Shown here in pieces: positions 54,410-64,000 of a stretch of DNA of 64,000 bases. The number at the start of each line of letters is the position of its first letter. Position 1 is the first letter of the stretch. The notes below the pieces were generated by a model, which was not told the origin of the DNA, did not search any database, and was given only the letters and a program-made list of their open reading frames with translations. The translations under genes were made by a program, and so were the position numbers. Source of the DNA: Burkholderiales bacterium (GTDB taxonomy: Bacteria > Pseudomonadota > Gammaproteobacteria > Burkholderiales > SG8-39); assembly GCA_014860445.1 (NCBI GenBank), contig JACZJT010000048.1:828-64827 (forward strand). Reading direction: 5' to 3'.

Positions 54410-54438
54410 TTGAGAGGAAGCGCGAATTAGAGCATAAT
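54410..54438 (+). promoter_or_regulatory. Sigma70-type promoter of the host tRNA-Leu
   Basis: TTGAGA-N17-CATAAT followed by a GC-rich discriminator. Confidence 0.6.
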
Positions 54439-54469: not shown

Positions 54470-54508
54470 GCCGGGATGGCGGAATTGGTAGACGCACGGG
54501 ACTCAAAA
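54470..54508 (+). pseudogene. 5' half of host tRNA-Leu(CAA), broken at the end of the anticodon loop (attL)
   Basis: GCCGGGATGGCGGAATTGGTAGACGCACGGGACTCAAAA then CCCCTAATAG...; no variable arm, T-arm or CCA follows. Confidence 0.9.
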
Positions 54509-54548
54509 CCCCTAATAGTTAACAATCTACTGCATTTTTATCTTGTAA

Positions 54549-54632
54549 TATCAATACATTGATGTAAAATCTTCTAAGAGTTTGGCATTACACAGTCGTT
54601 ACACAAAAAACGCCAAATTTCACAGTTTCACG
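54549..54632. promoter_or_regulatory. att-arm features: IHF consensus and direct repeats
   Basis: TATCAATACATTG (54549-54561) matches WATCAANNNNTTR; TTACACA x2 (54588, 54599); TTTCAC x2 (54618, 54626). Confidence 0.6.
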
Positions 54633-54647
54633 GAAGGAGACACATCG

Positions 54648-55952
54648 ATGCCAGAAGACCACCAAATGATGGGCGGGAAGCTCCACGTCTACAGGCGTGA
54701 GAACAGCAGTTGCTGGCAGTGCTCCACCTTTCTTGGTGGAAGGAACCATCGTAGAAGCACCAAGGAAGAATCCCTCTCCCTGGCCAAGGATATTGCCGAA
54801 GACTGGTATCTGGAACTGAAAGGCAAGTTCCGGGCAGGAGAGCTTAAGAACGGCAAGACCTTCAAATTCGCGGCCGACCAGTTCCGCCGCGAATACGAGA
54901 CGATCACCGCCGGAGAGCGGAACGCACAATATGTAGACGGCCATTGGAGACGGCTTAAAGTCCACCTCCTTCCCTTTTTCGGCGAGAAAGTCGTTTCAGA
55001 AATCACGCCGGGCCTAGTTCAAGAATATAGAGTCCATCGGGCAACGTCCCGCAAGCATCCCAAAACCGGCGAGCCGGTGCGGCCGGCTCGCTCAACTCTG
55101 CATCAAGAAATCGTAACGCTGCGCCACGTCCTCAATACGGCGCAGCGGCATGGGTGGCTTCCCTTTGTTCCCAATCTTTCTCCCCCGTACAGAGCCTCGG
55201 GGAAGATCGTTCACCGGGCCTGGTTCTCACCGGAAGAATACAAACAGCTATACGAGGGTACGCGGCAACGCGCCAGCAAACCACCGAAACCGCGGTGGAA
55301 ATGGGCCTGCGAGCAGCTGCATGACTTCACATTGTTCATGGTGAACACGGGCCTTCGGCCCGACGAAGCGTGGCGACTCGAGTACCGCGACGTTGAAATC
55401 GTCGATGATGAAGGCTCAGGCGAGACAATCCTGGAAATAAGTGTTCGGGGAAAACGCGGCGTCGGCTATTGCAAAAGCATGCCGGGCGCCGTGCATCCGT
55501 TTGAGCGTGTCCGCGACCGACCAAAACCCAACGACATGGGTCGCGGACAGCGAAGCGCCACAAAGGGCGATGGAAAATCCCGATCCAGCGAAAAAGCACC
55601 AACCGATTTGCTCTTCCCAAAACGGCATCGTGAACTATTCAACGAAATTCTGAGCGAAAAGAATCTCAAGAAAGACCGTGAAGGGAACGCACGCACGTTC
55701 TACAGTCTTCGACATACGTATATAAGCATGCGGCTCATGGAAGGAGCCGACATTTATCAGATTGCGAAAAACTGCCGCACCAGCGTCGAAATGATCGAAA
55801 AATTCTACGCGTCGCACATCAAGAACATGATCGACGCGTCTGCGGTTAACGTTCGGAAAACCCGGCCGAACGGCGGCTCTTCAAAGCGTACCGTGGACAC
55901 GAAACGCAAGAAACCCGCGCGGCACGACGGCGACCCGGAAGCACGCGATTAA
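54648..55952 (+). CDS. int: Tyrosine recombinase / phage-type integrase
   Basis: RBS GGAAGGAG; N-terminal arm-binding-like region; NTGLRPDE, VRGKRG, FYSLRHTY, AKNCRTSVEMIEKFY. Confidence 0.93.
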   Translation: MPEDHQMMGGKLHVYRRENSSCWQCSTFLGGRNHRRSTKEESLSLAKDIAEDWYLELKGKFRAGELKNGKTFKFAADQFRREYETITAGERNAQYVDGHWRRLKVHLLPFFGEKVVSEITPGLVQEYRVHRATSRKHPKTGEPVRPARSTLHQEIVTLRHVLNTAQRHGWLPFVPNLSPPYRASGKIVHRAWFSPEEYKQLYEGTRQRASKPPKPRWKWACEQLHDFTLFMVNTGLRPDEAWRLEYRDVEIVDDEGSGETILEISVRGKRGVGYCKSMPGAVHPFERVRDRPKPNDMGRGQRSATKGDGKSRSSEKAPTDLLFPKRHRELFNEILSEKNLKKDREGNARTFYSLRHTYISMRLMEGADIYQIAKNCRTSVEMIEKFYASHIKNMIDASAVNVRKTRPNGGSSKRTVDTKRKKPARHDGDPEARD

Positions 55953-55955
55953 GCC

Positions 55956-55984
55956 TTGGCGGCTGCAATTCGTAACGCTATAGT
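55956..55984 (+). promoter_or_regulatory. Sigma70-type promoter for the element tRNA-Leu(UAA)
   Basis: TTGGCG-N17-TATAGT, starting 3 bp after the integrase stop. Confidence 0.7.
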
Positions 55985-55999
55985 CGTTTGGACTGATAC

Positions 56000-56326
56000 G
56001 CGGACGTGGCGAAATTGGTAGACGCAACGGACTTAAGTAAATTGAGTGCCCTTGTCGGAAACGTAAGGTGCAGAACTGCTCAAATTCGGGGAACCCTGCA
56101 AAGGCAATCCCGAGCCAAGCCCCGCAAGGGGAAGGTGTAGAGACTAGACGGGCAGCGCCTAAACCCCACCTTGAATGCCGAGGCGGGGCACGGCGAAGGG
56201 ATAGTCCAGACCACAAACTTAGCCGAAGCGCCGATGGCGCGACGGCGAGGGCGGCGAAAGCCGTAGATGGTACGAAAATCCGTTGGCCGCAAGGCCATGG
56301 GGGTTCAAGTCCCCCCGCCCGCACCA
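56000..56326 (+). tRNA. tRNA-Leu(UAA) interrupted by a group I intron (exons 56000-56034 and 56275-56326)
   Basis: Spliced product GCGGACGTGGCGAAATTGGTAGACGCAACGGACTT/AAAATCCGTTGGCCGCAAGGCCATGGGGGTTCAAGTCCCCCCGCCCGCACCA folds as an 87-nt class II tRNA; one A5-C68 mismatch. Confidence 0.92.
56035..56274 (+). ncRNA. Group I self-splicing intron (IC3-like, 240 nt, no ORF)
   Basis: P1 ACUU/AA:UUGAGU with U-G wobble; P AAAUUCGGGGAA, Q AAUCCCGAGC, R GUAGAGACUAGA, S AAGGGAUAGUCC; GAAA-capped hairpin near the 3' end; terminal G. Confidence 0.93.
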
Positions 56327-56352
56327 GTCCCTCAAGCTCAACAAATAAGAAG

Positions 56353-56529
56353 GCAAAGAACGGTCGCGCCAGCGTCCAAGTTATCGAGAAATGCTATGCG
56401 TCGTAGATCAAGGACTTGATCGACGCATAAGCTATCAATGCTCGTAAGGATCGGTCGAACGACCGTCCCCCAAAAAGTGAAGCGAACGCAAAACGCAAGA
56501 AAACCGGGAACCCGGAAAAGCGGGTTTAG
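56353..56529 (+). pseudogene. Decayed 3' end of a paralogous integrase
   Basis: Reads AKNGRASVQVIEKCYAS*IKDLIDA*AINARK...KRKK versus the intact integrase AKNCRTSVEMIEKFYASHIKNMIDASAVNVRK...KRKK. Confidence 0.85.
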
Positions 56530-56542
56530 GCAAGCCTTTCTC

Positions 56543-56571
56543 TTGGCGGAAACACGTGCTGAGGCTATACT
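56543..56571 (+). promoter_or_regulatory. Sigma70-type promoter for the element tRNA-Leu(CAA)
   Basis: TTGGCG-N17-TATACT, same -35 hexamer as the UAA promoter. Confidence 0.7.
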
Positions 56572-56587
56572 CCCAACACTTCCAATT

Positions 56588-56907
56588 GCCCGGGTGGCGG
56601 AATTGGTAGACGCAGAGGACTCAAGTTAAATTGAGCCCCCTTGGAGAAATCCTTGGGGTGAAGCCCGTCAAACTCGGTGAAGGCCCAGGAAGAACATTCC
56701 GAGCTAATGCCGAGCCAAGCCCAAGATCGGAAGATCGAGGGAAGGTGTAGAGAGCAGACGGCGGGCACCTAAAGTCGAAAGGCTATGGTGAAGGCGTGCT
56801 CCAGACCACGAACTTTGTATCTTCGGAAGCAAGGGCGGCGAAAGCCGAAGTGGTAAGAAAATCCTCCGCCGAAAGGTGTGCCGGTTCGAGTCCGGCCTCG
56901 GGCACCA
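56588..56907 (+). tRNA. tRNA-Leu(CAA) interrupted by a group I intron (exons 56588-56622 and 56858-56907)
   Basis: Spliced product GCCCGGGTGGCGGAATTGGTAGACGCAGAGGACTC/AAAATCCTCCGCCGAAAGGTGTGCCGGTTCGAGTCCGGCCTCGGGCACCA, 85 nt; acceptor, anticodon and T stems pair. Confidence 0.92.
56623..56857 (+). ncRNA. Group I self-splicing intron (IC3-like, 235 nt, no ORF)
   Basis: P AAACUCGGUGAA, Q AAUGCCGAGC, R GUAGAGAGCAGA, S AAGGCGUGCUCC; CCUAA..UAUGG tetraloop receptor in P8; terminal G. Confidence 0.92.
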
Positions 56908-56911
56908 ATTC

Positions 56912-56946
56912 AAAAAAGCCGTTCTCAATCGAGGACGGCTTTTTTG
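56912..56946. terminator. Bidirectional Rho-independent terminator after the tRNA pair
   Basis: AAAAAAGCCGTTCTC-AATC-GAGGACGGCTTTTTT. Confidence 0.85.
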
Positions 56947-57001
56947 TTCCATTCCCCAAACAGGGTTAATTTAGCTGCATGTGTATGGCATGCCGAACTC
57001 T

Positions 57002-57940
57002 TCATTCAGTTGGTTCCTCCTCGGAGTCCGGATCATCAAAAGAGACGCCCGGAGCGCCAATCACATCCATCAGTTTCAAACGATCACCCTTTTGATCGCC
57101 CAACTCTAGGTAATGATGTTCGAGCTCATCCCGTACAAAAGCTTTAGCCGCGTCGGACTGAAAGCAGTCCAAATATTCGTCAACACACTCAGGATCAAAT
57201 TCGAGTGGAGGAATGCCTTGAAGAAACTGTAAGTACCCCGAAGTACCCTTGGTGTTCATGAAGAAAATGAGCAATTCTTTCCACAAAACGTCCTCGGCGG
57301 GGATGTCCGCCTCACCTAAGAATATGGTCTGGGCTTTCGATCCGTGGCGCAGCTCGTAGGTATATAGGTTCAATTCACGAGCGCGCGTTTCGATAATTTG
57401 ATACAAAACAGCAGAGATTTTTTGTACGGTCGTTCGTAGAAACTTGCGATACCGGGGTTCATTGGGAGTGCCCAGAATGGAGCCTGAATCTGCAATTTCC
57501 ACTTGAAGGTACTTGGCGAAGAAGCCACAAAGCGCATCTCTTTCCTTTCGGAGATCAGAGACGGAGGACAGGGAAAAGCGATCGTACCGAAAGGTTTTAT
57601 AAAAAGTGGCGAGCAAGCTCAGCAGTTCATTATGCGGTGTACTTAGGCTGACTGTCGTGTGCTGCTTTATTCGGTGAAGGAGGTCAAGATGGCTATGCGT
57701 AATCAACGACTGTTCTAGTGCGCCCTGATCCACATCATCTTTGTGCTCTAGCAAGACGACAGCGATCTTTAGTAAGCGCTCAAGGCCCACGGATAGATAA
57801 TAGAACACCTCGAAGATCTCATCCGGGTAGTCGAGCTTTCTCAGCTCGTGAAAACGGCGCAGACCGTTGTAGATAAACGCCCCGGAAATACTGAGTTCCT
57901 CGCCGAGCCTGAAGTTCTTCCAGAATTCAGCTGGGTTCAT
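57002..57940 (-). CDS. Hypothetical protein with HEPN-like N-terminal half
   Basis: GLERLLKIA...ITHSHLDLL...FYKTFRY resembles the HEPN ExxLK...THxL...YxxxRY pattern; RBS AGGAG. Confidence 0.55.
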   Translation of the reverse strand: MNPAEFWKNFRLGEELSISGAFIYNGLRRFHELRKLDYPDEIFEVFYYLSVGLERLLKIAVVLLEHKDDVDQGALEQSLITHSHLDLLHRIKQHTTVSLSTPHNELLSLLATFYKTFRYDRFSLSSVSDLRKERDALCGFFAKYLQVEIADSGSILGTPNEPRYRKFLRTTVQKISAVLYQIIETRARELNLYTYELRHGSKAQTIFLGEADIPAEDVLWKELLIFFMNTKGTSGYLQFLQGIPPLEFDPECVDEYLDCFQSDAAKAFVRDELEHHYLELGDQKGDRLKLMDVIGAPGVSFDDPDSEEEPTE

Positions 57941-58061
57941 CGGTGCTCCTTAGTAGCTTCGGTGCGATCTCACTGCGCCCACCCTACGTAGAATTGAACG
58001 GCGGGCCAGCCACCTTACCGCTCTCAAGCGTAATTGCAAAGGTGTAAATGTGCGCGCCAAC

Positions 58062-58253
58062 TTAGAACTTCGGCCCGCTCATGCGACGCGCCGCCAGCGC
58101 GCGCTTGAGGATTTGAAGCGAGTACATCGCCGCGGCATATTCAGGACTGGAAGCATCCATGCTTCGCAGGCATTGCAGGACTTCGCCGATCATGGCGGTG
58201 AGTTGAGCCGTGCTCTTGAAGGTAAGCTCTGTTGCGTTGATAATGATTTTCAT
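58062..58253 (-). CDS. Small hypothetical protein (63 aa)
   Basis: MKIIINATEL...RRMSGPKF with GGAGAGAG RBS. Confidence 0.65.
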   Translation of the reverse strand: MKIIINATELTFKSTAQLTAMIGEVLQCLRSMDASSPEYAAAMYSLQILKRALAARRMSGPKF

Positions 58254-58688
58254 GGTCTCTCTCCGCTTTCTCTTCGGCCGCGACAATCGCGGACTTCATG
58301 CGGCTGTCGGAGCGCCGGCAGTTCCGGTGTCGCATCCGCTTCGGACCGAAACGGCAGAGAAGGAGCCCCCCCATGTTTCGCTTGGAAGGCATGAGGGCTT
58401 GCGGCGCCAAAGGACGCCGGTGCTAAAGCTGCATCACTGAAGGACGGGATTACGGCGGCAGGAAACGAAGGGAGGGACCAGGATAAGGTTCATGCAAGCG
58501 CTGCCTGCAAGAAGCCGACGACAACTGTTCGCCTTGGAAAGGGTTTAGTGAACGCTGCAAATAGGATGTAACCCGGTGCCGGTATGGGTATGGCAGAAAC
58601 TGGCAATCAGGTATGGCCTTTTGCGCCGTGGCGGATTACAGTGGACCGAAAATTCCGGGGCAGAATGGTATATGGATCGTTACTCACT

Positions 58689-59594
58689 ATGAGCCGTGAC
58701 TGGGAAACTACGTTTTCCAGCTGGGGAGCCGCGCCCGGAGCAACCGAACAGACAAAAGCTGAGAATGCGGAACGTGCCGTCCGCAAGGCCATCGACGCCA
58801 GCGCGAAACTAAACGACAAGAACATTGAGGTCTTTGCCCAGGGTTCCTACGCCAACCGCACCAATGTTCGCCAGGATAGCGACGTTGATATTTGCGTGCT
58901 CTATAAAGGCGCTTTCTTTCCTGACTACTCGATGAGCCAGGGATTGAGTAGTGACGTGCTTGGCCTCCCGGACGGTACCTACTTCTATGCGGACTTCAAA
59001 AACGATGTTGAAGCCGCCCTAGTTGCTTATTTCGGCGAAGGCACAGTGAATCGCGGGAGTAAAGCTTTCGACGTACACGCAAACACATACCGGATTGATG
59101 CCGATGTGGTGCCGTGCTTTCAGCTCAGGCGCTATATGGGTACGCTTCAAAATAATTATTGGATTACGCCTGAGGGAACCGAGATCCACCCGGATGACGG
59201 CGGCGTGATTCAGAACTGGCCCCGTCAGAACTACAAGAATGGTGTTGATAAAAATACTGCAACGGGCCAGCGTTTCAAGACGGTCGTGCGCATTCTGAAA
59301 CGGTTGCGCAATGAAATGACTGAAGCGGGACAAGCCTCTGCAAAGTCTATCCCTTCGTTCCTCATTGAATGTCTGGCCTGGAATGTACCGAAAGACGGAT
59401 TCGGCCACGATACTTTGACTGCAGATATCCGATACGCACTTGCGCACTTGTGGAATGAGACGCGCAGCGACGAAACCTGTTCCGAGTGGGGCGAGATCAA
59501 CGAACTAAAATATCTGTTTAGGGGACAGCCCTGGACCCGTGAACAGGTAAATGCATTCCTGCAAGCCGCATGGGATTACGTGGGGTTTGAATAG
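58689..59594 (+). CDS. CBASS cGAS/DncV-like nucleotidyltransferase, CdnE-like
   Basis: MSRDWETTF...AENAERAVR, QGSYANRTNVRQDSDVD, DADVVP, QNWP, SFLIECL, WGEINELKYLF; resembles Legionella CdnE as I remember it. Confidence 0.9.
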   Translation: MSRDWETTFSSWGAAPGATEQTKAENAERAVRKAIDASAKLNDKNIEVFAQGSYANRTNVRQDSDVDICVLYKGAFFPDYSMSQGLSSDVLGLPDGTYFYADFKNDVEAALVAYFGEGTVNRGSKAFDVHANTYRIDADVVPCFQLRRYMGTLQNNYWITPEGTEIHPDDGGVIQNWPRQNYKNGVDKNTATGQRFKTVVRILKRLRNEMTEAGQASAKSIPSFLIECLAWNVPKDGFGHDTLTADIRYALAHLWNETRSDETCSEWGEINELKYLFRGQPWTREQVNAFLQAAWDYVGFE

Positions 59595-59596
59595 CA

Positions 59597-60220
59597 ATGG
59601 CACCGCGATATATCAAGGCAATCATCTATCTGACCGTCGTGATATGGACGGGTGTCCTGTACGCCTATCAAGAACAAGTCCAATCGGAAACGCTGCGGCA
59701 TCTGTCGCTGGTTATTACGATTGTGCTTTACGTCGTGATGGCATTCGACCTCTGGGTCTGGAAACTGCCGTTTTTGCGTGGCTGGTTCGTAAAGAGACCC
59801 GTCATTGATGGAACATGGAAGGTTGAAATCCGCTCACTGTGGAAAGATCCCGCTACCGGTGCCGGAATACCACCTGTTGAAGGCTACATGGTTGTACGAC
59901 AGACGTTTTCCACCTTGAGCATGAGGCTGCTGACGGCTGAATCGCACTCCGAACTGGTCGGTACGGAAATCGTGTTCTCGATGGATGGGCTCTACTGTGT
60001 GAGTGGTGTATACCGGAACGAACCCCGTCTACAGGTTCGGGAAAAAAGCCCGATGCATTACGGTGCAGTGTGGCTGAGGGTTGTCGGTGAACCAACCCAG
60101 AAAATCACCGGCCACTACTGGACCGACCGCCAGACCATTGGCGAAATGGACCTCACCGACCGGCATGTCGGCAGGTTTCAGGACTTTGAATCTGCAAAAG
60201 CGCACTACGATAATGTTTGA
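59597..60220 (+). CDS. cap15: CBASS effector Cap15 (2TM + beta-barrel, S-2TMbeta)
   Basis: Two N-terminal TMs; RPVIDGTW, VRQT, TAESHS, YRNEP, HYG, GHYWTDR; 2 bp after the cyclase. Confidence 0.88.
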   Translation: MAPRYIKAIIYLTVVIWTGVLYAYQEQVQSETLRHLSLVITIVLYVVMAFDLWVWKLPFLRGWFVKRPVIDGTWKVEIRSLWKDPATGAGIPPVEGYMVVRQTFSTLSMRLLTAESHSELVGTEIVFSMDGLYCVSGVYRNEPRLQVREKSPMHYGAVWLRVVGEPTQKITGHYWTDRQTIGEMDLTDRHVGRFQDFESAKAHYDNV

Positions 60221-61205
60221 TGAGCTAAAACGAGAACTGAATCGTCTAAGTGGCACCCATCGAGTTTCTGTGCCAATCCACAGCGACGAAGAAGGCTATC
60301 TCGACAGAGAGTGCCCGGCGCAGGAATGTCAGTTTGGTTTTAAGATTCTCGAAGAGGACTGGCGAGACAAGGTTCGCGACGAGAAAGTGTTCTGTCCGTT
60401 TTGCGGACACACCGCACAATCGGACAAGTGGTATACGCCGGAGCAGGTCGAAGCTGTAAAAAAGGCGGGCGTCGCTCAGCTTCAGGGGCGCATAAATGCG
60501 GCCATGAAGCACGATGCCGAGCAGTGGAACCGTCGGCAAAGTCCGAATAGCTTCCTGCGAATGACAATGAAGGTAAACAGCCGACCGCAGCAGGTCTCCT
60601 TACCGCCTATGGCGGCAGAACCTATGCGGATGAAGATTACCTGCCCGGCATGCGCTTGCCGCTATGCCGTTATCGGCGCCGCGTTTTTCTGCCCTGCGTG
60701 CGGCCATAACGCAGCCGATCTCATGTTCACGCAGTCGATCAACGGCATACGTAACGCGCTTGATGCTCTTCCCGGCGTTCGCGCTGCGATTTCCGACCGC
60801 GATATCGCCGAAACGACCGTTCGCCTCATCATAGAAAATGGCTTGCAGAACGCAATTACCGCATTCCAGCGGTATGCGGAGGTGCTCTATGCCACGCGCT
60901 ATCCGTCGTTATCTGTGCCGCGACGGAACGTGTTTCAGAGTCTCAGCGAAGGAAGCTCCCTATGGCACCTGGCATCGGGGAAGCAATACAGTGATTACCT
61001 GACTACTGCCGAATTAAGTGCGCTCACCAAATATTTCCAGCAACGCCATCTTCTGGCCCACCGCGACGGCCTAGTAGATGCGGACTATATTACGCGCAGC
61101 GGGGATAGCGCCTACCGTGAAGGCCAGCGCCTGGTTGTCCGTGATGCGTCCGTGCGCGAATGTCTGACGTTTATTGAGAAGCTCGCAAGTAGCATGGCGT
61201 CCTGA
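60213..61205 (+). CDS. Zinc-ribbon plus HEPN-like (RxxxxH) protein
   Basis: CPAQEC, CPFCGH, CPAC, CPACGH; C-terminal FQQRHLLAHRDG; ATG overlaps the cap15 stop by 8 bp. Confidence 0.72.
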   Translation: MFDELKRELNRLSGTHRVSVPIHSDEEGYLDRECPAQECQFGFKILEEDWRDKVRDEKVFCPFCGHTAQSDKWYTPEQVEAVKKAGVAQLQGRINAAMKHDAEQWNRRQSPNSFLRMTMKVNSRPQQVSLPPMAAEPMRMKITCPACACRYAVIGAAFFCPACGHNAADLMFTQSINGIRNALDALPGVRAAISDRDIAETTVRLIIENGLQNAITAFQRYAEVLYATRYPSLSVPRRNVFQSLSEGSSLWHLASGKQYSDYLTTAELSALTKYFQQRHLLAHRDGLVDADYITRSGDSAYREGQRLVVRDASVRECLTFIEKLASSMAS

Positions 61206-61288
61206 TGTCTCAATTTGTCCCTGTCTGCAATGGCGATGATGCTGCACTGTTTTAATTCAATCGCCCAATTCGACTCGCTATAAAGCAA

Positions 61289-61320
61289 AGGGCGGAAAAC
61301 GCTTTGCGCTCCCGCCCTAC
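61289..61320 (-). repeat. GTAG-type REP-like palindrome
   Basis: GTAGGGCGGGAGCGCAAAGCGTTTTCCGCCCT on the minus strand. Confidence 0.55.
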
Positions 61321-61334
61321 TGGACCTAGATAAT

Positions 61335-62204
61335 TCAGTGAGGTTTCCTCACCCATTCTTCAAGAGTCAGGGGAAGAAACATGGGAGCCTTACGGAAAAA
61401 GCTGTAATTTGGCGCAATTGTTTCGCTCGGATTTACGACGATGATCTTGTAGGAATAGCGCCTATCCGCCGGAACGCGCTTTCCCTCGTAGAATGCCGGC
61501 ATCCGCGTACTGTCAGTGTTATACCAATCCGCGTAGTTGAAAAGTGACTTCGCTTCCAGATCCGATGGGGGCATTGAGTAACCGATGAATACCAGCGTAT
61601 CTATCTCGGCTTGATTACGAAGAACGCTGAAAGCCTTCTTCCATCTTGGCGCCATAGGCACTTTTGTTGTTCTGTACGCAAATTTGGTATATGTCGGCCA
61701 AGCCAGCGTTTTCTCGCCGATTGCACCATGCAAGTGTATGACCCGCTCGCCCACGACAAGATCAAGTCTCTGCGCCGCCGCCTCCAAAAGTAAGTCGTAG
61801 TTAAATGTCAGAATGAAGTCGTGCTTCCAATCTACCCGGCGCATGAAATCCAGAATTGTCTTGCCCTCGATATCCCAATTTATGTCGCTGACGCAAGATT
61901 TAAGGTAGGTACGCAGCGCGCTTCGAATCTCTTTCTCTTCTTCTCGAAAGACATTCCTTCCAGGTCCTAGATATTCGGCCGAGAATTTTAGAGAAGAAAG
62001 AGTGGACATGAATAACTCAAAGCTCACTTCCCGCTGAGTATGAAAGTTTTGCTCTCGCAAATGATCAATCGTTGTCCGTGGTGGCCCCCCGCCCTTTTCC
62101 ACTGTGGCCTTAAGCAGAGGATTTAAGGTATCCAACATCTCCATATCGGTTGCAATGCCGCACGTCTTGGAAAAGCCAGCGCCGAGCACATAAATCGTAC
62201 CCAT
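61335..62204 (-). CDS. SIR2-like domain protein (putative NADase defence effector)
   Basis: VLGAGFS, LTFNYDLLLE, IHLHG, VFIGYS, IIVVNP. Confidence 0.82.
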   Translation of the reverse strand: MGTIYVLGAGFSKTCGIATDMEMLDTLNPLLKATVEKGGGPPRTTIDHLREQNFHTQREVSFELFMSTLSSLKFSAEYLGPGRNVFREEEKEIRSALRTYLKSCVSDINWDIEGKTILDFMRRVDWKHDFILTFNYDLLLEAAAQRLDLVVGERVIHLHGAIGEKTLAWPTYTKFAYRTTKVPMAPRWKKAFSVLRNQAEIDTLVFIGYSMPPSDLEAKSLFNYADWYNTDSTRMPAFYEGKRVPADRRYSYKIIVVNPSETIAPNYSFFRKAPMFLPLTLEEWVRKPH

Positions 62205-62355
62205 AGCTAGTCCCTTGGGTGATCGCTGGAGTATTGCCAGAGGGCCATATCCAGGTCCCGGACCGTGAGGCGATGCTTGGCAGCCACGGCGCGGTGAGCG
62301 AAGAACGCCGCGAAACAATCTGTCCATTTATCCATCGTAACGAATCCCTATCTAT

Positions 62356-62826
62356 CTATGCCCACCTTAGCCATGCTGCCAGGCCGGCGACAATCAGGCC
62401 GCCGATCACTGCGATGACCCACTGATGGTTCATTATTTTAATTATGACGCTAGAGCCTTCGCCAGGCGGCGAAGTGATGAACTGTGATGTCACATCGTTT
62501 CCCGCATCCACGATGTCTTCGGCGTCGTAACCATGACCGGCGCTGATGAGAACCACGGATGAATTGCGGTTGAACTCTTCGATGTCCTTCCAGCTCTTGG
62601 CCTGTATATCCTTCAATTCCTCAGCGGTGCCGCGCTCAGTTTCCATGATCTGGGTCCACGCGATGTTTCCGGTCTCAATGACCTCCGCGCCGGACAATGT
62701 GCTCCGCCCGGCCCGGTAAGGCTTCAGAAACTTCGACTCCAGATCCTTTCTTGATAGGTCCGAGAAAACGCAACGGGCTTTATCCGGCGCGGACTTGAAT
62801 TTGACCAGGACATGAAAGAAGGTCAT
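62356..62826 (-). CDS. Hypothetical protein with C-terminal membrane anchor
   Basis: RBS GGGAGGAG; soluble domain followed by WVIAVIGGLIVAGLAAWL. Confidence 0.75.
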   Translation of the reverse strand: MTFFHVLVKFKSAPDKARCVFSDLSRKDLESKFLKPYRAGRSTLSGAEVIETGNIAWTQIMETERGTAEELKDIQAKSWKDIEEFNRNSSVVLISAGHGYDAEDIVDAGNDVTSQFITSPPGEGSSVIIKIMNHQWVIAVIGGLIVAGLAAWLRWA

Positions 62827-62871
62827 GCGCTCCTCCCGTTGCTTCCAAATATTGGCCTGCGGCGGGCCAGT

Positions 62872-63318
62872 CTATTTTTTCACCGAATATCCGGCGTGCT
62901 CAAGAACTTTGACGCACAGCGCGACGAATGCTTCATGCGACAAGTCGTTTTTCGCGTCGTTCGTTCGCCAACCGCATATGCGGAAGCTCGCTTCGGTTGC
63001 GCCCGCGCTTACATGATCCACCGTGGGAAGCAGTGCGAACGTAGATTTGTAGGCGTGCTTGCCCACCTTGGAATCCTCATTCTTGTAGGTACTGATCAAT
63101 TTCCAATCAAGCTCTTCGCCGGTATACGCATCACGACCGCCGGAGACAACGACGGCGGCGTGTATCGCCTCTTTGTATAGCGCCTGTGTGACCTGCGATT
63201 GCCCGCGTTTCCGGTCTCGCTTCACATGCGCCGCGGCTTTGCGCCCGAGCCAGCGCTCATACGCCTCGGGCAGAACCAAAGTGTTCAAGAACGCCGGCAT
63301 CGTGTGCTTGCGAGGCAT
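62872..63318 (-). CDS. HNH-like endonuclease fold protein
   Basis: GRDAYTG...PTVDHV...ICGWRTNDAK pattern. Confidence 0.6.
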   Translation of the reverse strand: MPRKHTMPAFLNTLVLPEAYERWLGRKAAAHVKRDRKRGQSQVTQALYKEAIHAAVVVSGGRDAYTGEELDWKLISTYKNEDSKVGKHAYKSTFALLPTVDHVSAGATEASFRICGWRTNDAKNDLSHEAFVALCVKVLEHAGYSVKK

Positions 63319-63344
63319 AGCAAGTCCTTTTAACTGTCTATGGC

Positions 63345-63379
63345 GAAAGGCGGAAGGCGCTTTGCGCCTTCCGCCTTTC
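63345..63379. repeat. Perfect 16-bp hairpin related to the repeat at 61289
   Basis: GAAAGGCGGAAGGCGC-TTT-GCGCCTTCCGCCTTTC. Confidence 0.7.
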
Positions 63380-63499
63380 AGTTACGCTCGTAACGATCAG
63401 AACAACATGACACCACGCGCGCCTTTTTGCAAGGGACCGGCGGCCTTGACCCTTTGTGCGCGCCGTGCCGACGCCAGGTGGCGCCGGTAACGCGGCCCT

Positions 63500-64000
63500 T
63501 TAGAGGTCGAGGAAAGGGCGACTGAAACTCGGCGGCAACATCGCATCCAGCTCTTTCGCGGCTTCTTTGTCGGGTTTGTCAAAGAGACCCCGGAGTTCGA
63601 CGTTGAGCTGCGGTTTTTCCTTTTCGCGCTCTCCAAGCCACCGCAAGTACATTCCTGCGATCCAGAGATACCGGTCCAAGTCGCGACTGGTCGCCACTAA
63701 ATGCGCATCTGTGCGTAGCTTCTGAAAGGCCCGGCAGAAGGCAACGTATGGCTGTTTGCCGTCTTCCAAATAGCCCGTGCTGCCCAGGTGATGCCGGAGC
63801 ATCACCCGCGCCGCATCATCATAGATAGGGAAACGCTCTGCATCGATGAAGAAGTGACAAAACTTCGCTGCGAAACTCACGAACCGGCGCTTACCACCGC
63901 CGGCAACCGTAGGCAGATCGGCGATTGCCTCTACGTCATCAGGCCCGACGGCGGCAATGTCCCTTCCACGGAGGATTCCCCCTATATGCTCAGCCATGCG
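63500..64000 (-). CDS. Hypothetical protein with HhH/DNA-glycosylase-like motifs; 5' end probably outside the window
   Basis: SFAAKFCHF...FPIYD...RDLDRYLW; frame is open to the window edge. Confidence 0.55.
   Translation of the reverse strand, partial: RMAEHIGGILRGRDIAAVGPDDVEAIADLPTVAGGGKRRFVSFAAKFCHFFIDAERFPIYDDAARVMLRHHLGSTGYLEDGKQPYVAFCRAFQKLRTDAHLVATSRDLDRYLWIAGMYLRWLGEREKEKPQLNVELRGLFDKPDKEAAKELDAMLPPSFSRPFLDL

Follow-up and report, generated by a model that had tools for sequence, protein, structure and literature searches.

How does a bacterium live with an integrative element that has cut one of its transfer RNA (tRNA) genes in two and has not rebuilt it? The question is raised by a stretch of 64,000 nucleotides (nt) from a Burkholderiales bacterium (assembly GCA_014860445.1, contig JACZJT010000048.1, positions 828 to 64,827). 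This whole stretch is the window of the present analysis; it corresponds to G000:C3:828-64827, that is, to contig C3 of its own genome (G000), which has 73 contigs and is 99.5% complete. The answer we consider very probable is that a mobilisable or conjugative defence island has split the tRNA-Leu(CAA) gene of its host and complements the loss in trans with a copy of its own, and that this behaviour is a trait of the family to which its integrase belongs. The complementation in trans is well supported. The features on which the argument depends are the following:

54470..54508, + strand: 5' half of the host's gene for tRNA-Leu(CAA), its first 39 nt, through the anticodon loop
54509..54647, + strand: arm P' of the element, between the core and int, AT-rich, with two TTACACA repeats and a promoter-like site
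54648..55952, + strand: tyrosine integrase gene (int), 434 amino acids, with a phrog_1 match and conserved residues
56000..56326, + strand: tRNA-Leu(UAA) gene, with 5' exon 56000-56034, intron 56035-56274 and 3' exon 56275-56326
56588..56907, + strand: tRNA-Leu(CAA) gene, with 5' exon 56588-56622, intron 56623-56857 and 3' exon 56858-56907

The host gene is split in the window. The 39 nt at 54470-54508 comprise the acceptor strand, the D arm, the 5' strand of the anticodon stem and the loop CTCAAAA, and they are identical to the start of the intact gene in 11 of 11 same-genus loci (31 genomes matched and 12 loci were fetched, one of which is the window's own). In all 11 the tRNA-Leu(CAA) gene is intact and directly follows queA, which gives the empty site. 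Downstream of 54508 the sequence is AT-rich, does not belong to a tRNA and allows no pairing with the anticodon stem; GC content falls from about 0.65 before the junction to 0.53-0.56 after it and stays low until the end of the window.

The other half lies on a different contig. A tRNA-Leu profile run with nhmmer over the whole genome finds a single further piece, at C56:28981-29040; the orphan 3' half of tRNA-Leu(CAA) extends over C56:28976-29040 and is preceded by AT-rich DNA which is not a 5' half. GC content is 0.54-0.62 over C56:1-30000 and 0.65 immediately beyond. The orphan is the same as the 3' half of the intact same-genus gene, except for one absent G of the acceptor strand, and in two same-genus loci (L085 and L090) the sequence beyond the intact gene continues as it does on C56. 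The two junctions, attachment sites attL in the window and attR on C56, have a sole stretch in common, the 11 base pairs (bp) GGGACTCAAAA (54498-54508). ARAGORN calls no tRNA at attL in the window, where default settings were used, and none at attR on C56, which lacks a 5' half. With a core of only about 11 bp, placed in the anticodon loop, integration leaves the host gene as two dead pieces, neither of them restored. A preliminary description of the window, made from its letters, had stated that the gene stops after its anticodon loop, that no 3' half follows in this contig and that nothing is rebuilt in cis. All of this holds, and two related elements in a closed chromosome, described below, are alike. 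The tRNA-Leu genes of the genome have the anticodons tag, cag, gag and, without intron, taa; there is no intron-less caa gene, and the sole tRNA-Leu(CAA) gene found in the genome is the island copy.

Some further observations were made around these junctions. The missing acceptor G (C56:29030-29040, compared with 11 intact orthologues) could be decay of a dead fragment or a sequencing error. In four same-genus loci (L082, L086, L088 and L089) another shared sequence directly follows the intact tRNA-Leu(CAA) gene, which suggests that this gene's 3' end serves other islands as well. The TTACACA repeats of arm P' stand at 54588-54594 and 54599-54605, its promoter-like site at 54543-54570, and TTACACA repeats are also found on the far arm, beside attR (C56:28905-28935). 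Such pairs (TTACACA-N4/5-TTACACA, on both arms of attP) are conserved across phyla, about 40-60 nt before int in most of the loci L001-L080 considered below; they are probably arm-type integrase sites or an operator of int.

Which enzyme made the cut? A tyrosine integrase had been placed behind the broken gene in the preliminary description, and we agree: the product of int matches the phrog_1 'integrase' (E 9.7e-28, residues 14-374), and in 81 of 81 aligned homologues its residues R237, K269/K276, R355-H356 and Y387 do not vary. These we take to be the catalytic residues of the tyrosine recombinase motif; the position of the first His in the usual HxxR box is occupied by Y352. The match to Pfam PF00589 (Phage_integrase) reaches 22.4 bits, under the cutoff of 27.1, no NCBIfam profile matches the integrase, and a sequence search of the PDB gave no relative of it. 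It appears to be a divergent tyrosine recombinase.

Two complete tRNA-Leu genes, UAA and CAA, follow int, each of them split by a group I intron between tRNA positions 34 and 35. No RNA gene is reported anywhere in the window by ARAGORN with default settings or by Rfam at its gathering threshold. When introns are allowed, ARAGORN finds a taa gene with a 240-nt intron and a caa gene with a 235-nt intron, both after nt 35 of the gene. In a genome-wide search this setting gives many false calls, so that only calls backed by exon logic or by nhmmer have been used. With an E-value threshold, both introns match Intron_gpI (RF00028), at 47.1 bits (E 3.2e-10) and 36.0 bits (E 7e-7), the gathering threshold being 50; the Rfam group I seed contains no bacterial members (bioRxiv 10.1101/2020.01.27.920355). 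The last intron base is G in both genes. The 5' splice site follows a U in the UAA gene and a C in the CAA gene; in the latter, this C forms a C-G Watson-Crick pair at the splice site. The neighbouring features are:

54410..54438, + strand: site from a promoter-like consensus scan
55956..55984, + strand: promoter-like TTGGCG-17-TATAGT for tRNA-Leu(UAA), from the consensus scan
56317..56523, + strand: 3' remnant of a second integrase gene (pseudogene), residues 361-433, with 45% identity to int and two in-frame stops
56543..56571, + strand: promoter-like TTGGCG-17-TATACT for tRNA-Leu(CAA), from the consensus scan
56908..56944, + strand: terminator-like hairpin and T-run, seen by eye, with weak cmscan alignments to terminator parts of other families

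Both genes had been described as complete, intron-bearing and provided with promoters, and so we find them: a promoter-like site stands 16-17 nt upstream of each. Four such sites are observed in the region, compared with 0.9 expected from shuffled sequences, and a similar TTGGC...TATAG spacing is seen by eye upstream of the replacement tRNAs of other loci. The terminator-like hairpin is absent from the list given by the consensus scan.

The two genes do not come from a single element. Between them lies the dead 3' end of a second integrase, which the preliminary description had overlooked and which is closest to the integrases that target CAA genes. Two related elements have thus been combined in one chimeric module: int with the intron-bearing tRNA-Leu(UAA), followed by a dead integrase end with the intron-bearing tRNA-Leu(CAA). 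Contigs of a sequencing run from another study (X3) cover 55029-56813 at about 94-95% identity and include a piece which runs from the remnant into the CAA gene, so the composite exists elsewhere too. The UAA gene had been taken for a replacement, and here the description fails: the genome has an intact intron-less tRNA-Leu(UAA) on contig C29, so that the island UAA gene replaces nothing broken in its own genome. This gene has an A-C mismatch in its acceptor (56004 with 56321, pair 5-68), which is also found in L017 and L020. Apparent exon-exon joints in the contigs were considered as splicing and discarded; they are intron-less tRNA-Leu genes of other organisms in DNA contigs.

Is this arrangement peculiar to the window? 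We have compared the 80 closest of at least 580 relatives of the integrase (contigs from one genome per species, 58-75% identity). Their record titles place them in Alphaproteobacteria, Acidobacteriota, Planctomycetota, Verrucomicrobiota, Armatimonadota, Gemmatimonadota, Binatia and others. In 62 of the 80, a tRNA-Leu 5' half cut after the loop precedes int by about 150 bp; 40 of these halves are CAA and 22 UAA. The remaining loci have an attP-like junction without a tRNA half (14), a complete tRNA-Leu(CAA) (2) or the end of a tRNA-Arg (2). A complete tRNA-Leu is found downstream of int, normally at about 50-100 bp and mostly within about 100 bp of its stop codon, either intron-less or with a group I intron. 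The association of these integrases with element-borne tRNA-Leu genes, 28 of them intron-bearing, which the preliminary description had offered as a check, is a strong one.

The broken half and the replacement are both present in 48 loci, and their anticodons agree in 47; the exception, L075, has a UAA half and a caa replacement gene. The anticodon of the carried tRNA follows the switches between CAA and UAA targets across the integrase tree. The downstream tRNA belongs to the element and not to the host, because the same tRNA is found behind different host halves: in sphingomonad loci, and likewise in Bryobacterales and Terriglobia, identical replacement tRNAs stand behind host halves whose acceptors do not pair with them, only 4-5 of 7 positions being matched. 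Of the 40 CAA-breaking loci 13 have no intact replacement, versus 1 of the 22 UAA-breaking loci; of the 13, one is not assessable and two have degenerate remnants of an intron-bearing tRNA. UUG codons can be read by tRNA-Leu(UAA), while UUA codons cannot be read by tRNA-Leu(CAA) and have no other reader. The rarity of missing replacements in UAA-breaking loci is what is expected if the replacement complements the broken gene. As a side observation, L075, an element with a caa replacement, and L066, an element of a clade without replacements, both sit in UAA genes: these are apparent off-target insertions, which should be costly unless a second UAA gene is present.

Two elements of the family lie in a closed chromosome, with attR 38 and 31 kb from attL and with 24 and 23 bp shared between the junctions. 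Their attR sites lack the first 13-14 nt of the tRNA, and ARAGORN calls no tRNA there. The same layout is also found at a different target: a same-genus locus (L247, G018:C179:12792-16736) has an integrase with 63% identity at tRNA-Ser(UGA). The broken 5' half is followed there by an arm whose repeats are TTACACA-like, then by int and finally by a complete tRNA-Ser as replacement. A stray tRNA 3' end lies about 70 nt beyond this replacement. In L041 (2335-5338) the order is host 5' half, arm, integrase A, 5' half of the replacement of A, and then integrase B with its own replacement: a related element has broken the replacement tRNA of an older one, again at this position of the loop. This shows that replacement genes are real targets.

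In three loci (L004, L013 and L028) open reading frames (ORFs) lie between int and a distant replacement. They were considered as an explanation for the remnants there and rejected, since they are only cargo (PFK, a Gp49-like protein and a borderline GIY-YIG protein). The last of these (L028:6511-7401, LEM-3-like, 27 bits, at the cutoff) stands about 120 nt upstream of an intron-bearing tRNA-Leu(CAA).

Why should so many replacement genes contain introns? The 28 intron-bearing replacements show three settings: CUU/intron/AAAA in 23 UAA genes, including that of the window; CUC/intron/AAAA, found in the CAA gene of the window only; and CU/intron/CAAAA in four CAA genes (L007, L010, L028 and L063). 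All 28 introns end in G, and in 27 a U stands directly before the 5' splice site, the exception being the CAA gene of the window. An RNAalifold consensus of 25 genes closes the acceptor, D, anticodon and T stems across the intron, and 48 of its 74 predicted pairs have compensatory changes, which points to structural constraint on the intron-bearing RNAs. To judge from the tree and from nhmmer scores of 195-290 bits across phyla, the introns belong to a single conserved clade.

All three settings interrupt the 7-nt loop. The sequence shared by attL and attR stops in every case at the 3' end of the loop or two bases beyond it, and strand exchange must therefore take place in the loop or just to its left. 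The canonical A31-C32-U33 is kept in 28 of 28 intron-bearing genes. Among the intron-less replacements, 30 of 31 differ from the core of their own junction (9-mer at positions 30-38), with at least five types of substitution (T32, G31, T31, C31 and C30); in L041 and L061 the target has T32 and the replacement C30. As a background, we have counted by hand 150 listed tRNA-Leu(CAA) matches from 401 genomes of the window's phylum, where 197 further matches lie outside these 150: the canonical 9-mer is present in 104 (about 69%), T32 in 44 and C30 in 2. A lead from genus g54, in which none of seven genomes showed the pattern of an intron-less tRNA-Leu(CAA) and which might instead have had intron-bearing genes, was given up, since a search of five of these genomes with the CAA gene of the window gave only generic tRNA pieces.

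The introns are also found where the integrase has gone. The preliminary description had suggested that the element is a vehicle for tRNA introns without ORFs, and we have scanned metagenome contigs with a motif made of the intron 3' end and the 3' exon; as the motif comes from the integrase-linked set, it catches that clade only. There are at least 80 loci, with 81 intron-bearing tRNA instances among the matches listed, of which 15 are cut by the contig end and 4 have less than 100 nt upstream. Among the same listed matches, 57 of the 62 assessable instances stand at att-type junctions. An integrase lies upstream in 6 of the 62. In 40, a tRNA-Leu 5' half which is broken or degenerate runs up to the core, and the intron-bearing gene comes next after a conserved spacer of about 43 nt. 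A TTACACA arm, the core and the same spacer are found in 5 (tandem copies), and in 6 the core follows other sequence. The remaining 5 have no core within 75 nt, although by eye two of them have it about 85 nt upstream. The shared spacer means that these remnants may descend from few events.

A complete example without integrase is L161 (1108-3760), of 2.55 kb: a 5' half, the spacer, the intron-bearing tRNA, one unrelated ORF, a TTACACA arm, the core and a 3' half, which can pair with the 5' half through its acceptor. In six other loci 3' halves are found 0.86-4.3 kb downstream. About 50 other loci among L096-L175 are integrase-less mini-elements at the 5' half of tRNA-Leu(UAA), and L147 has two tandem copies. 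Loci of this type are derivatives which lack the integrase, having either decayed or perhaps been mobilised in trans; the intron-bearing gene of the element would be the working copy beside the wrecked original.

The vehicle is supported for one UAA clade. A less biased sample, 151 genomes searched with RF00028 (the phylum of the genome which contains L054, on the Acidobacteriota side), has 14 genomes with a match, and besides the centre genome only two of the matches are tRNA-Leu introns, a number too small for an estimate of the share which elements carry. One, L237, lies by eye behind a decayed integrase remnant; the other, L235, is an Acidobacteriota gene without att scar. The other matches are in tRNA-Asn, tRNA-Arg or a tRNA with cat anticodon (Met according to ARAGORN), or lie outside tRNAs. 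Among them, L230, L231 and L241 (genomes G476, G483 and G570) have group I intron matches inside tRNA-Asn(GTT) and tRNA-Arg(TCT), and no integrase of this family is found within 1.5 kb of these three.

The rest of the window and the far contig indicate what kind of element this is:

57002..64000, strand not assigned: island cargo to the window end, with a nucleotidyltransferase, a Cap15-type receptor, a SIR2/AbiH-like ORF and unassigned ORFs

The nucleotidyltransferase is SMODS-like and stands with the Cap15-type receptor in a CBASS-like pair (58584-60220), while the SIR2/AbiH-like ORF (61335-62327) is a weak match. The island runs on C3 to position 67502 and then over C56:1-28975, that is, 12.2 kb on C3 and 29.0 kb on C56, at least 41 kb in all. 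The C56 part contains a TraG/VirD4-type coupling protein, a MobA/VirD2 relaxase, a type I restriction-modification system, a KAP NTPase and SIR2 with HerA. No phage structural genes were found among the ORFs scanned, 20 of those in the island. From this gene content, the window would contain the left end of a defence island of the integrative mobilisable or conjugative type. Among the many defence genes of the island there is also a QueC-like protein (L093/L094).

We suggest the following mechanism. The integrase would use a core of about 11 bp to recombine within the anticodon loop of tRNA-Leu(CAA). The split host gene is rebuilt at neither junction, and the island would supply tRNA-Leu(CAA) in trans; the replacement tRNA would then be expressed, spliced and needed by the cell. 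Such a replacement should not itself be a substrate of the integrase: if it were identical to the core it would stand in direct repeat with attL or attP, with int in between, and int could be deleted; or a related element could insert there. The gene could escape from this in two ways, through base changes at positions 30-32 or through a group I intron which cuts the 7-nt loop. That the intron acts as a recombination shield is plausible, but the evidence is correlative and has exceptions, and in our opinion the question could fall either way.

Several observations speak against this proposal, and they are best weighed together with its rivals. The island is split over two contigs, and genes of the VirB type or for mating-pair formation by a type IV secretion system (T4SS) are absent from the 20 ORFs scanned. 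The junction at 54508, which the preliminary description had wished to see backed by reads, was checked in assembled contigs of sequencing runs. It lies on a branch point of the assembly graph and is supported there by depth balance only; in run X1, possibly the source sample, no contig has at least 31 nt on both sides of it. One might then suppose that the metagenome assembly, of 73 contigs, has joined through shared tRNA sequence the island of another organism to this host, the more so as the junction is on a 42-nt unitig common to tRNA genes of other organisms. We regard this as very improbable. The contigs of the host flank (depth 22.6) and of the element (depth 27.8, with 0 differences over 54479-57000) are the only deep branches of that unitig in X1, and the other exits have a depth of about 2; no deep exit carries the 3' half of the host's own gene, which is preceded on C56 by an arm that bears the same TTACACA repeats. 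The architecture, moreover, recurs in the 62 relatives and in the two closed-chromosome elements. Still less credible is that the tRNA behind int is a chimera made of an element 5' half and the host 3' half, by which a small element restores the gene in cis. The layout of 5' half, int and complete tRNA would fit, and in L001-L003, L008 and L062 the broken acceptor pairs at 7 of 7 positions with the downstream tRNA. In the window it pairs at only 5 of 7 with the 3' strand of the CAA gene and at 4 of 7 with that of the UAA gene, and this acceptor complementarity rejects the mini-element model here; the true 3' half is on C56, identical downstream tRNAs follow different host halves, and in the closed chromosome attR lies tens of kb away, at the distances given above. 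More attention is due to a third explanation, still an unlikely one: the island tRNAs may be ordinary cargo, for codon supply or for escape from defences which cut tRNAs, and the broken gene may be dispensable. In fact, the island is full of defence genes, its UAA gene duplicates an intact host gene, the host tRNA-Leu(CAA) could be dispensable given the intact tRNA-Leu(UAA) on C29, and 12 assessable CAA-breaking relatives have no intact replacement. Against our own proposal there is also the C before the 5' splice site in the CAA gene, as such a base inactivates the Tetrahymena intron (bioRxiv 10.1101/2020.01.27.920355); expression, splicing and need of the island tRNAs are predictions, and none of the runs listed as RNA contains the stretch. 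Cargo, on the other hand, does not account for the match of anticodons in 47 of 48 loci, which tracks the target switches on the integrase tree, for the fixed place of the tRNA directly behind int, or for the lack of a tRNA in only one of the 22 UAA-breaking elements.

The weightiest rival leaves breaking and replacement as they are and makes the intron a passenger: an ancestral element would have captured an intron-bearing tRNA-Leu(UAA), the CAA genes would be derived from it or come from a second capture, and no protection would be involved. This is a real possibility, if a doubtful one. It agrees with the introns being one conserved clade across phyla, with integrase-less remnants which retain the intron when no integrase resides beside it, and with the scarless gene of L235. 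The canonical 5' exon of the intron-bearing genes may be fixed simply by pairing in the intron helix P1. There are also exceptions to the rule that the replacement must differ from the core: L016 has an intron-less UAA replacement with a 9-mer equal to its own core, and in the tRNA-Ser of L247 the loop and flanking bases are the same in replacement and target. To this it should be added that loci have been counted individually and are not independent events, and that the 80 loci are the nearest to this integrase and not a random sample of the family. What a passenger would not explain is that intron and core substitution are almost perfectly complementary (the canonical sequence in 28 of 28 genes with intron versus 1 of 31 without), that the introns of the three settings, after U34, C34 and U33, all cut the loop where the identity of attL and attR ends, and that the replacement genes are real targets of related elements, as in L041. 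If the intron does protect, one may think of an arms race in many phyla: the family destroys tRNA-Leu genes and renders the host dependent on the copy it brings; this copy is attacked by related elements, escapes by substitution or by an intron which interrupts the crossover site in the DNA and is spliced out of the RNA, and outlives the integrase as the sole gene of the host. On this account breaking and replacement would be a main route by which ORF-less group I introns of tRNA-Leu have spread and become fixed outside cyanobacteria. We put this forward tentatively, as a possibility somewhat short of even. The persistence and patchy occurrence of such introns have long been a puzzle.

To return to the reading we prefer, a defence island which splits tRNA-Leu(CAA) and complements it in trans, its consequences go beyond this locus. 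It extends tRNA-dependent integration from actinophages to mobilisable defence islands, in Proteobacteria, Acidobacteriota, Planctomycetota, Verrucomicrobiota and others, at hundreds of loci. The process would act as a ratchet: the host gene is destroyed and the copy of the element stays after the integrase is lost, so that a core tRNA gene is replaced horizontally and the island becomes hard to lose. Integrase-less remnants in which both broken halves are visible are common in soil metagenomes. There are practical consequences as well. Programs which look for islands and expect a rebuilt tRNA will place their ends wrongly, and standard tRNA finders and Rfam thresholds miss the intron-bearing genes, so that the genomes which carry them seem to lack an essential tRNA.

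How does this compare with known systems? Integration by tyrosine integrases at the anticodon-loop sublocation of tRNA genes is canonical, and was reportedly described by Williams in NAR in 2002. The present elements share with canonical integration into tRNA genes a crossover in or at the 7-nt loop, an int gene by the junction and arm repeats on both sides. They differ in that a canonical attP supplies the 3' part of the tRNA, by which the gene is rebuilt, whereas here 11-24 bp of the 5' side are shared and no gene is rebuilt.

The introns have been mapped before. A preprint by P. Williams (bioRxiv 10.1101/2020.01.27.920355) describes a class, Leu.3Cg, with C before the splice site, which comprises 72 genes, all from Proteobacteria. 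The CAA gene of the window belongs to it: its intron stands after loop position 3, with C before the splice site and a terminal G, in a proteobacterial host. The UAA gene has the classical CUU/intron/AAAA setting, as in the same preprint. The CU/intron/CAAAA setting for tRNA-Leu(CAA) is not listed in its text, which counts 21 classes, and it draws no link between introns and integrases, broken tRNA genes or islands (bioRxiv 10.1101/2020.01.27.920355). In Sinorhizobium meliloti a host tRNA gene can be replaced by a foreign tRNA gene borne on an element, in a study which cites tRNA-dependent lysogeny; its passages considered here mention neither tRNA-Leu nor introns nor this integrase family (PMC11476347). 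A search of the full-text literature, in which coverage of subscription journals is limited, gave no publication tying intron-bearing tRNAs to integrases or to broken tRNA genes. In the literature searched we have likewise not found the coupling with introns, the spread across phyla in non-phage islands, the attack of related elements on replacements or the integrase-less remnants.

The closest relative is tRNA-dependent lysogeny, the integration of actinobacteriophages which break a tRNA gene and complement it (Guerrero-Bustamante & Hatfull, mBio 2024, PMC10865867). The preliminary description knew of no account of the coupling it proposed. This stands for the intron link, which we have not found in the literature searched; complementation in trans is already published, in the parts of the actinophage paper used here (PMC10865867), and so is the class with C before the splice site (bioRxiv 10.1101/2020.01.27.920355). 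According to the same parts of the actinophage paper, these phages also have a tyrosine integrase and a core of about 8-10 bp in a tRNA gene which is not reconstructed, and phage Gaia has the same gene order, with tRNA-Leu-CAA as target, an 8-bp core and a tRNA-Leu-CAA downstream of its integrase. There are differences too. The actinophages are temperate, while the island encodes a coupling protein and a relaxase along with its defence genes, and its scanned ORFs included no phage genes; the island is in a Gram-negative host and its integrase family is found across many phyla; the need for the tRNA has been shown by genetics in the actinophages and is inferred for the island; and introns are not discussed in the text of the actinophage paper, where the word occurs once, in the title of a reference (PMC10865867). 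The island has the short core, the absence of a tRNA at attL and attR and the tRNA-Leu(caa) of its own which mark tRNA-dependent lysogeny, and it is not a temperate phage. In our analysis, the island would work like tRNA-dependent lysogeny, but it is no prophage.

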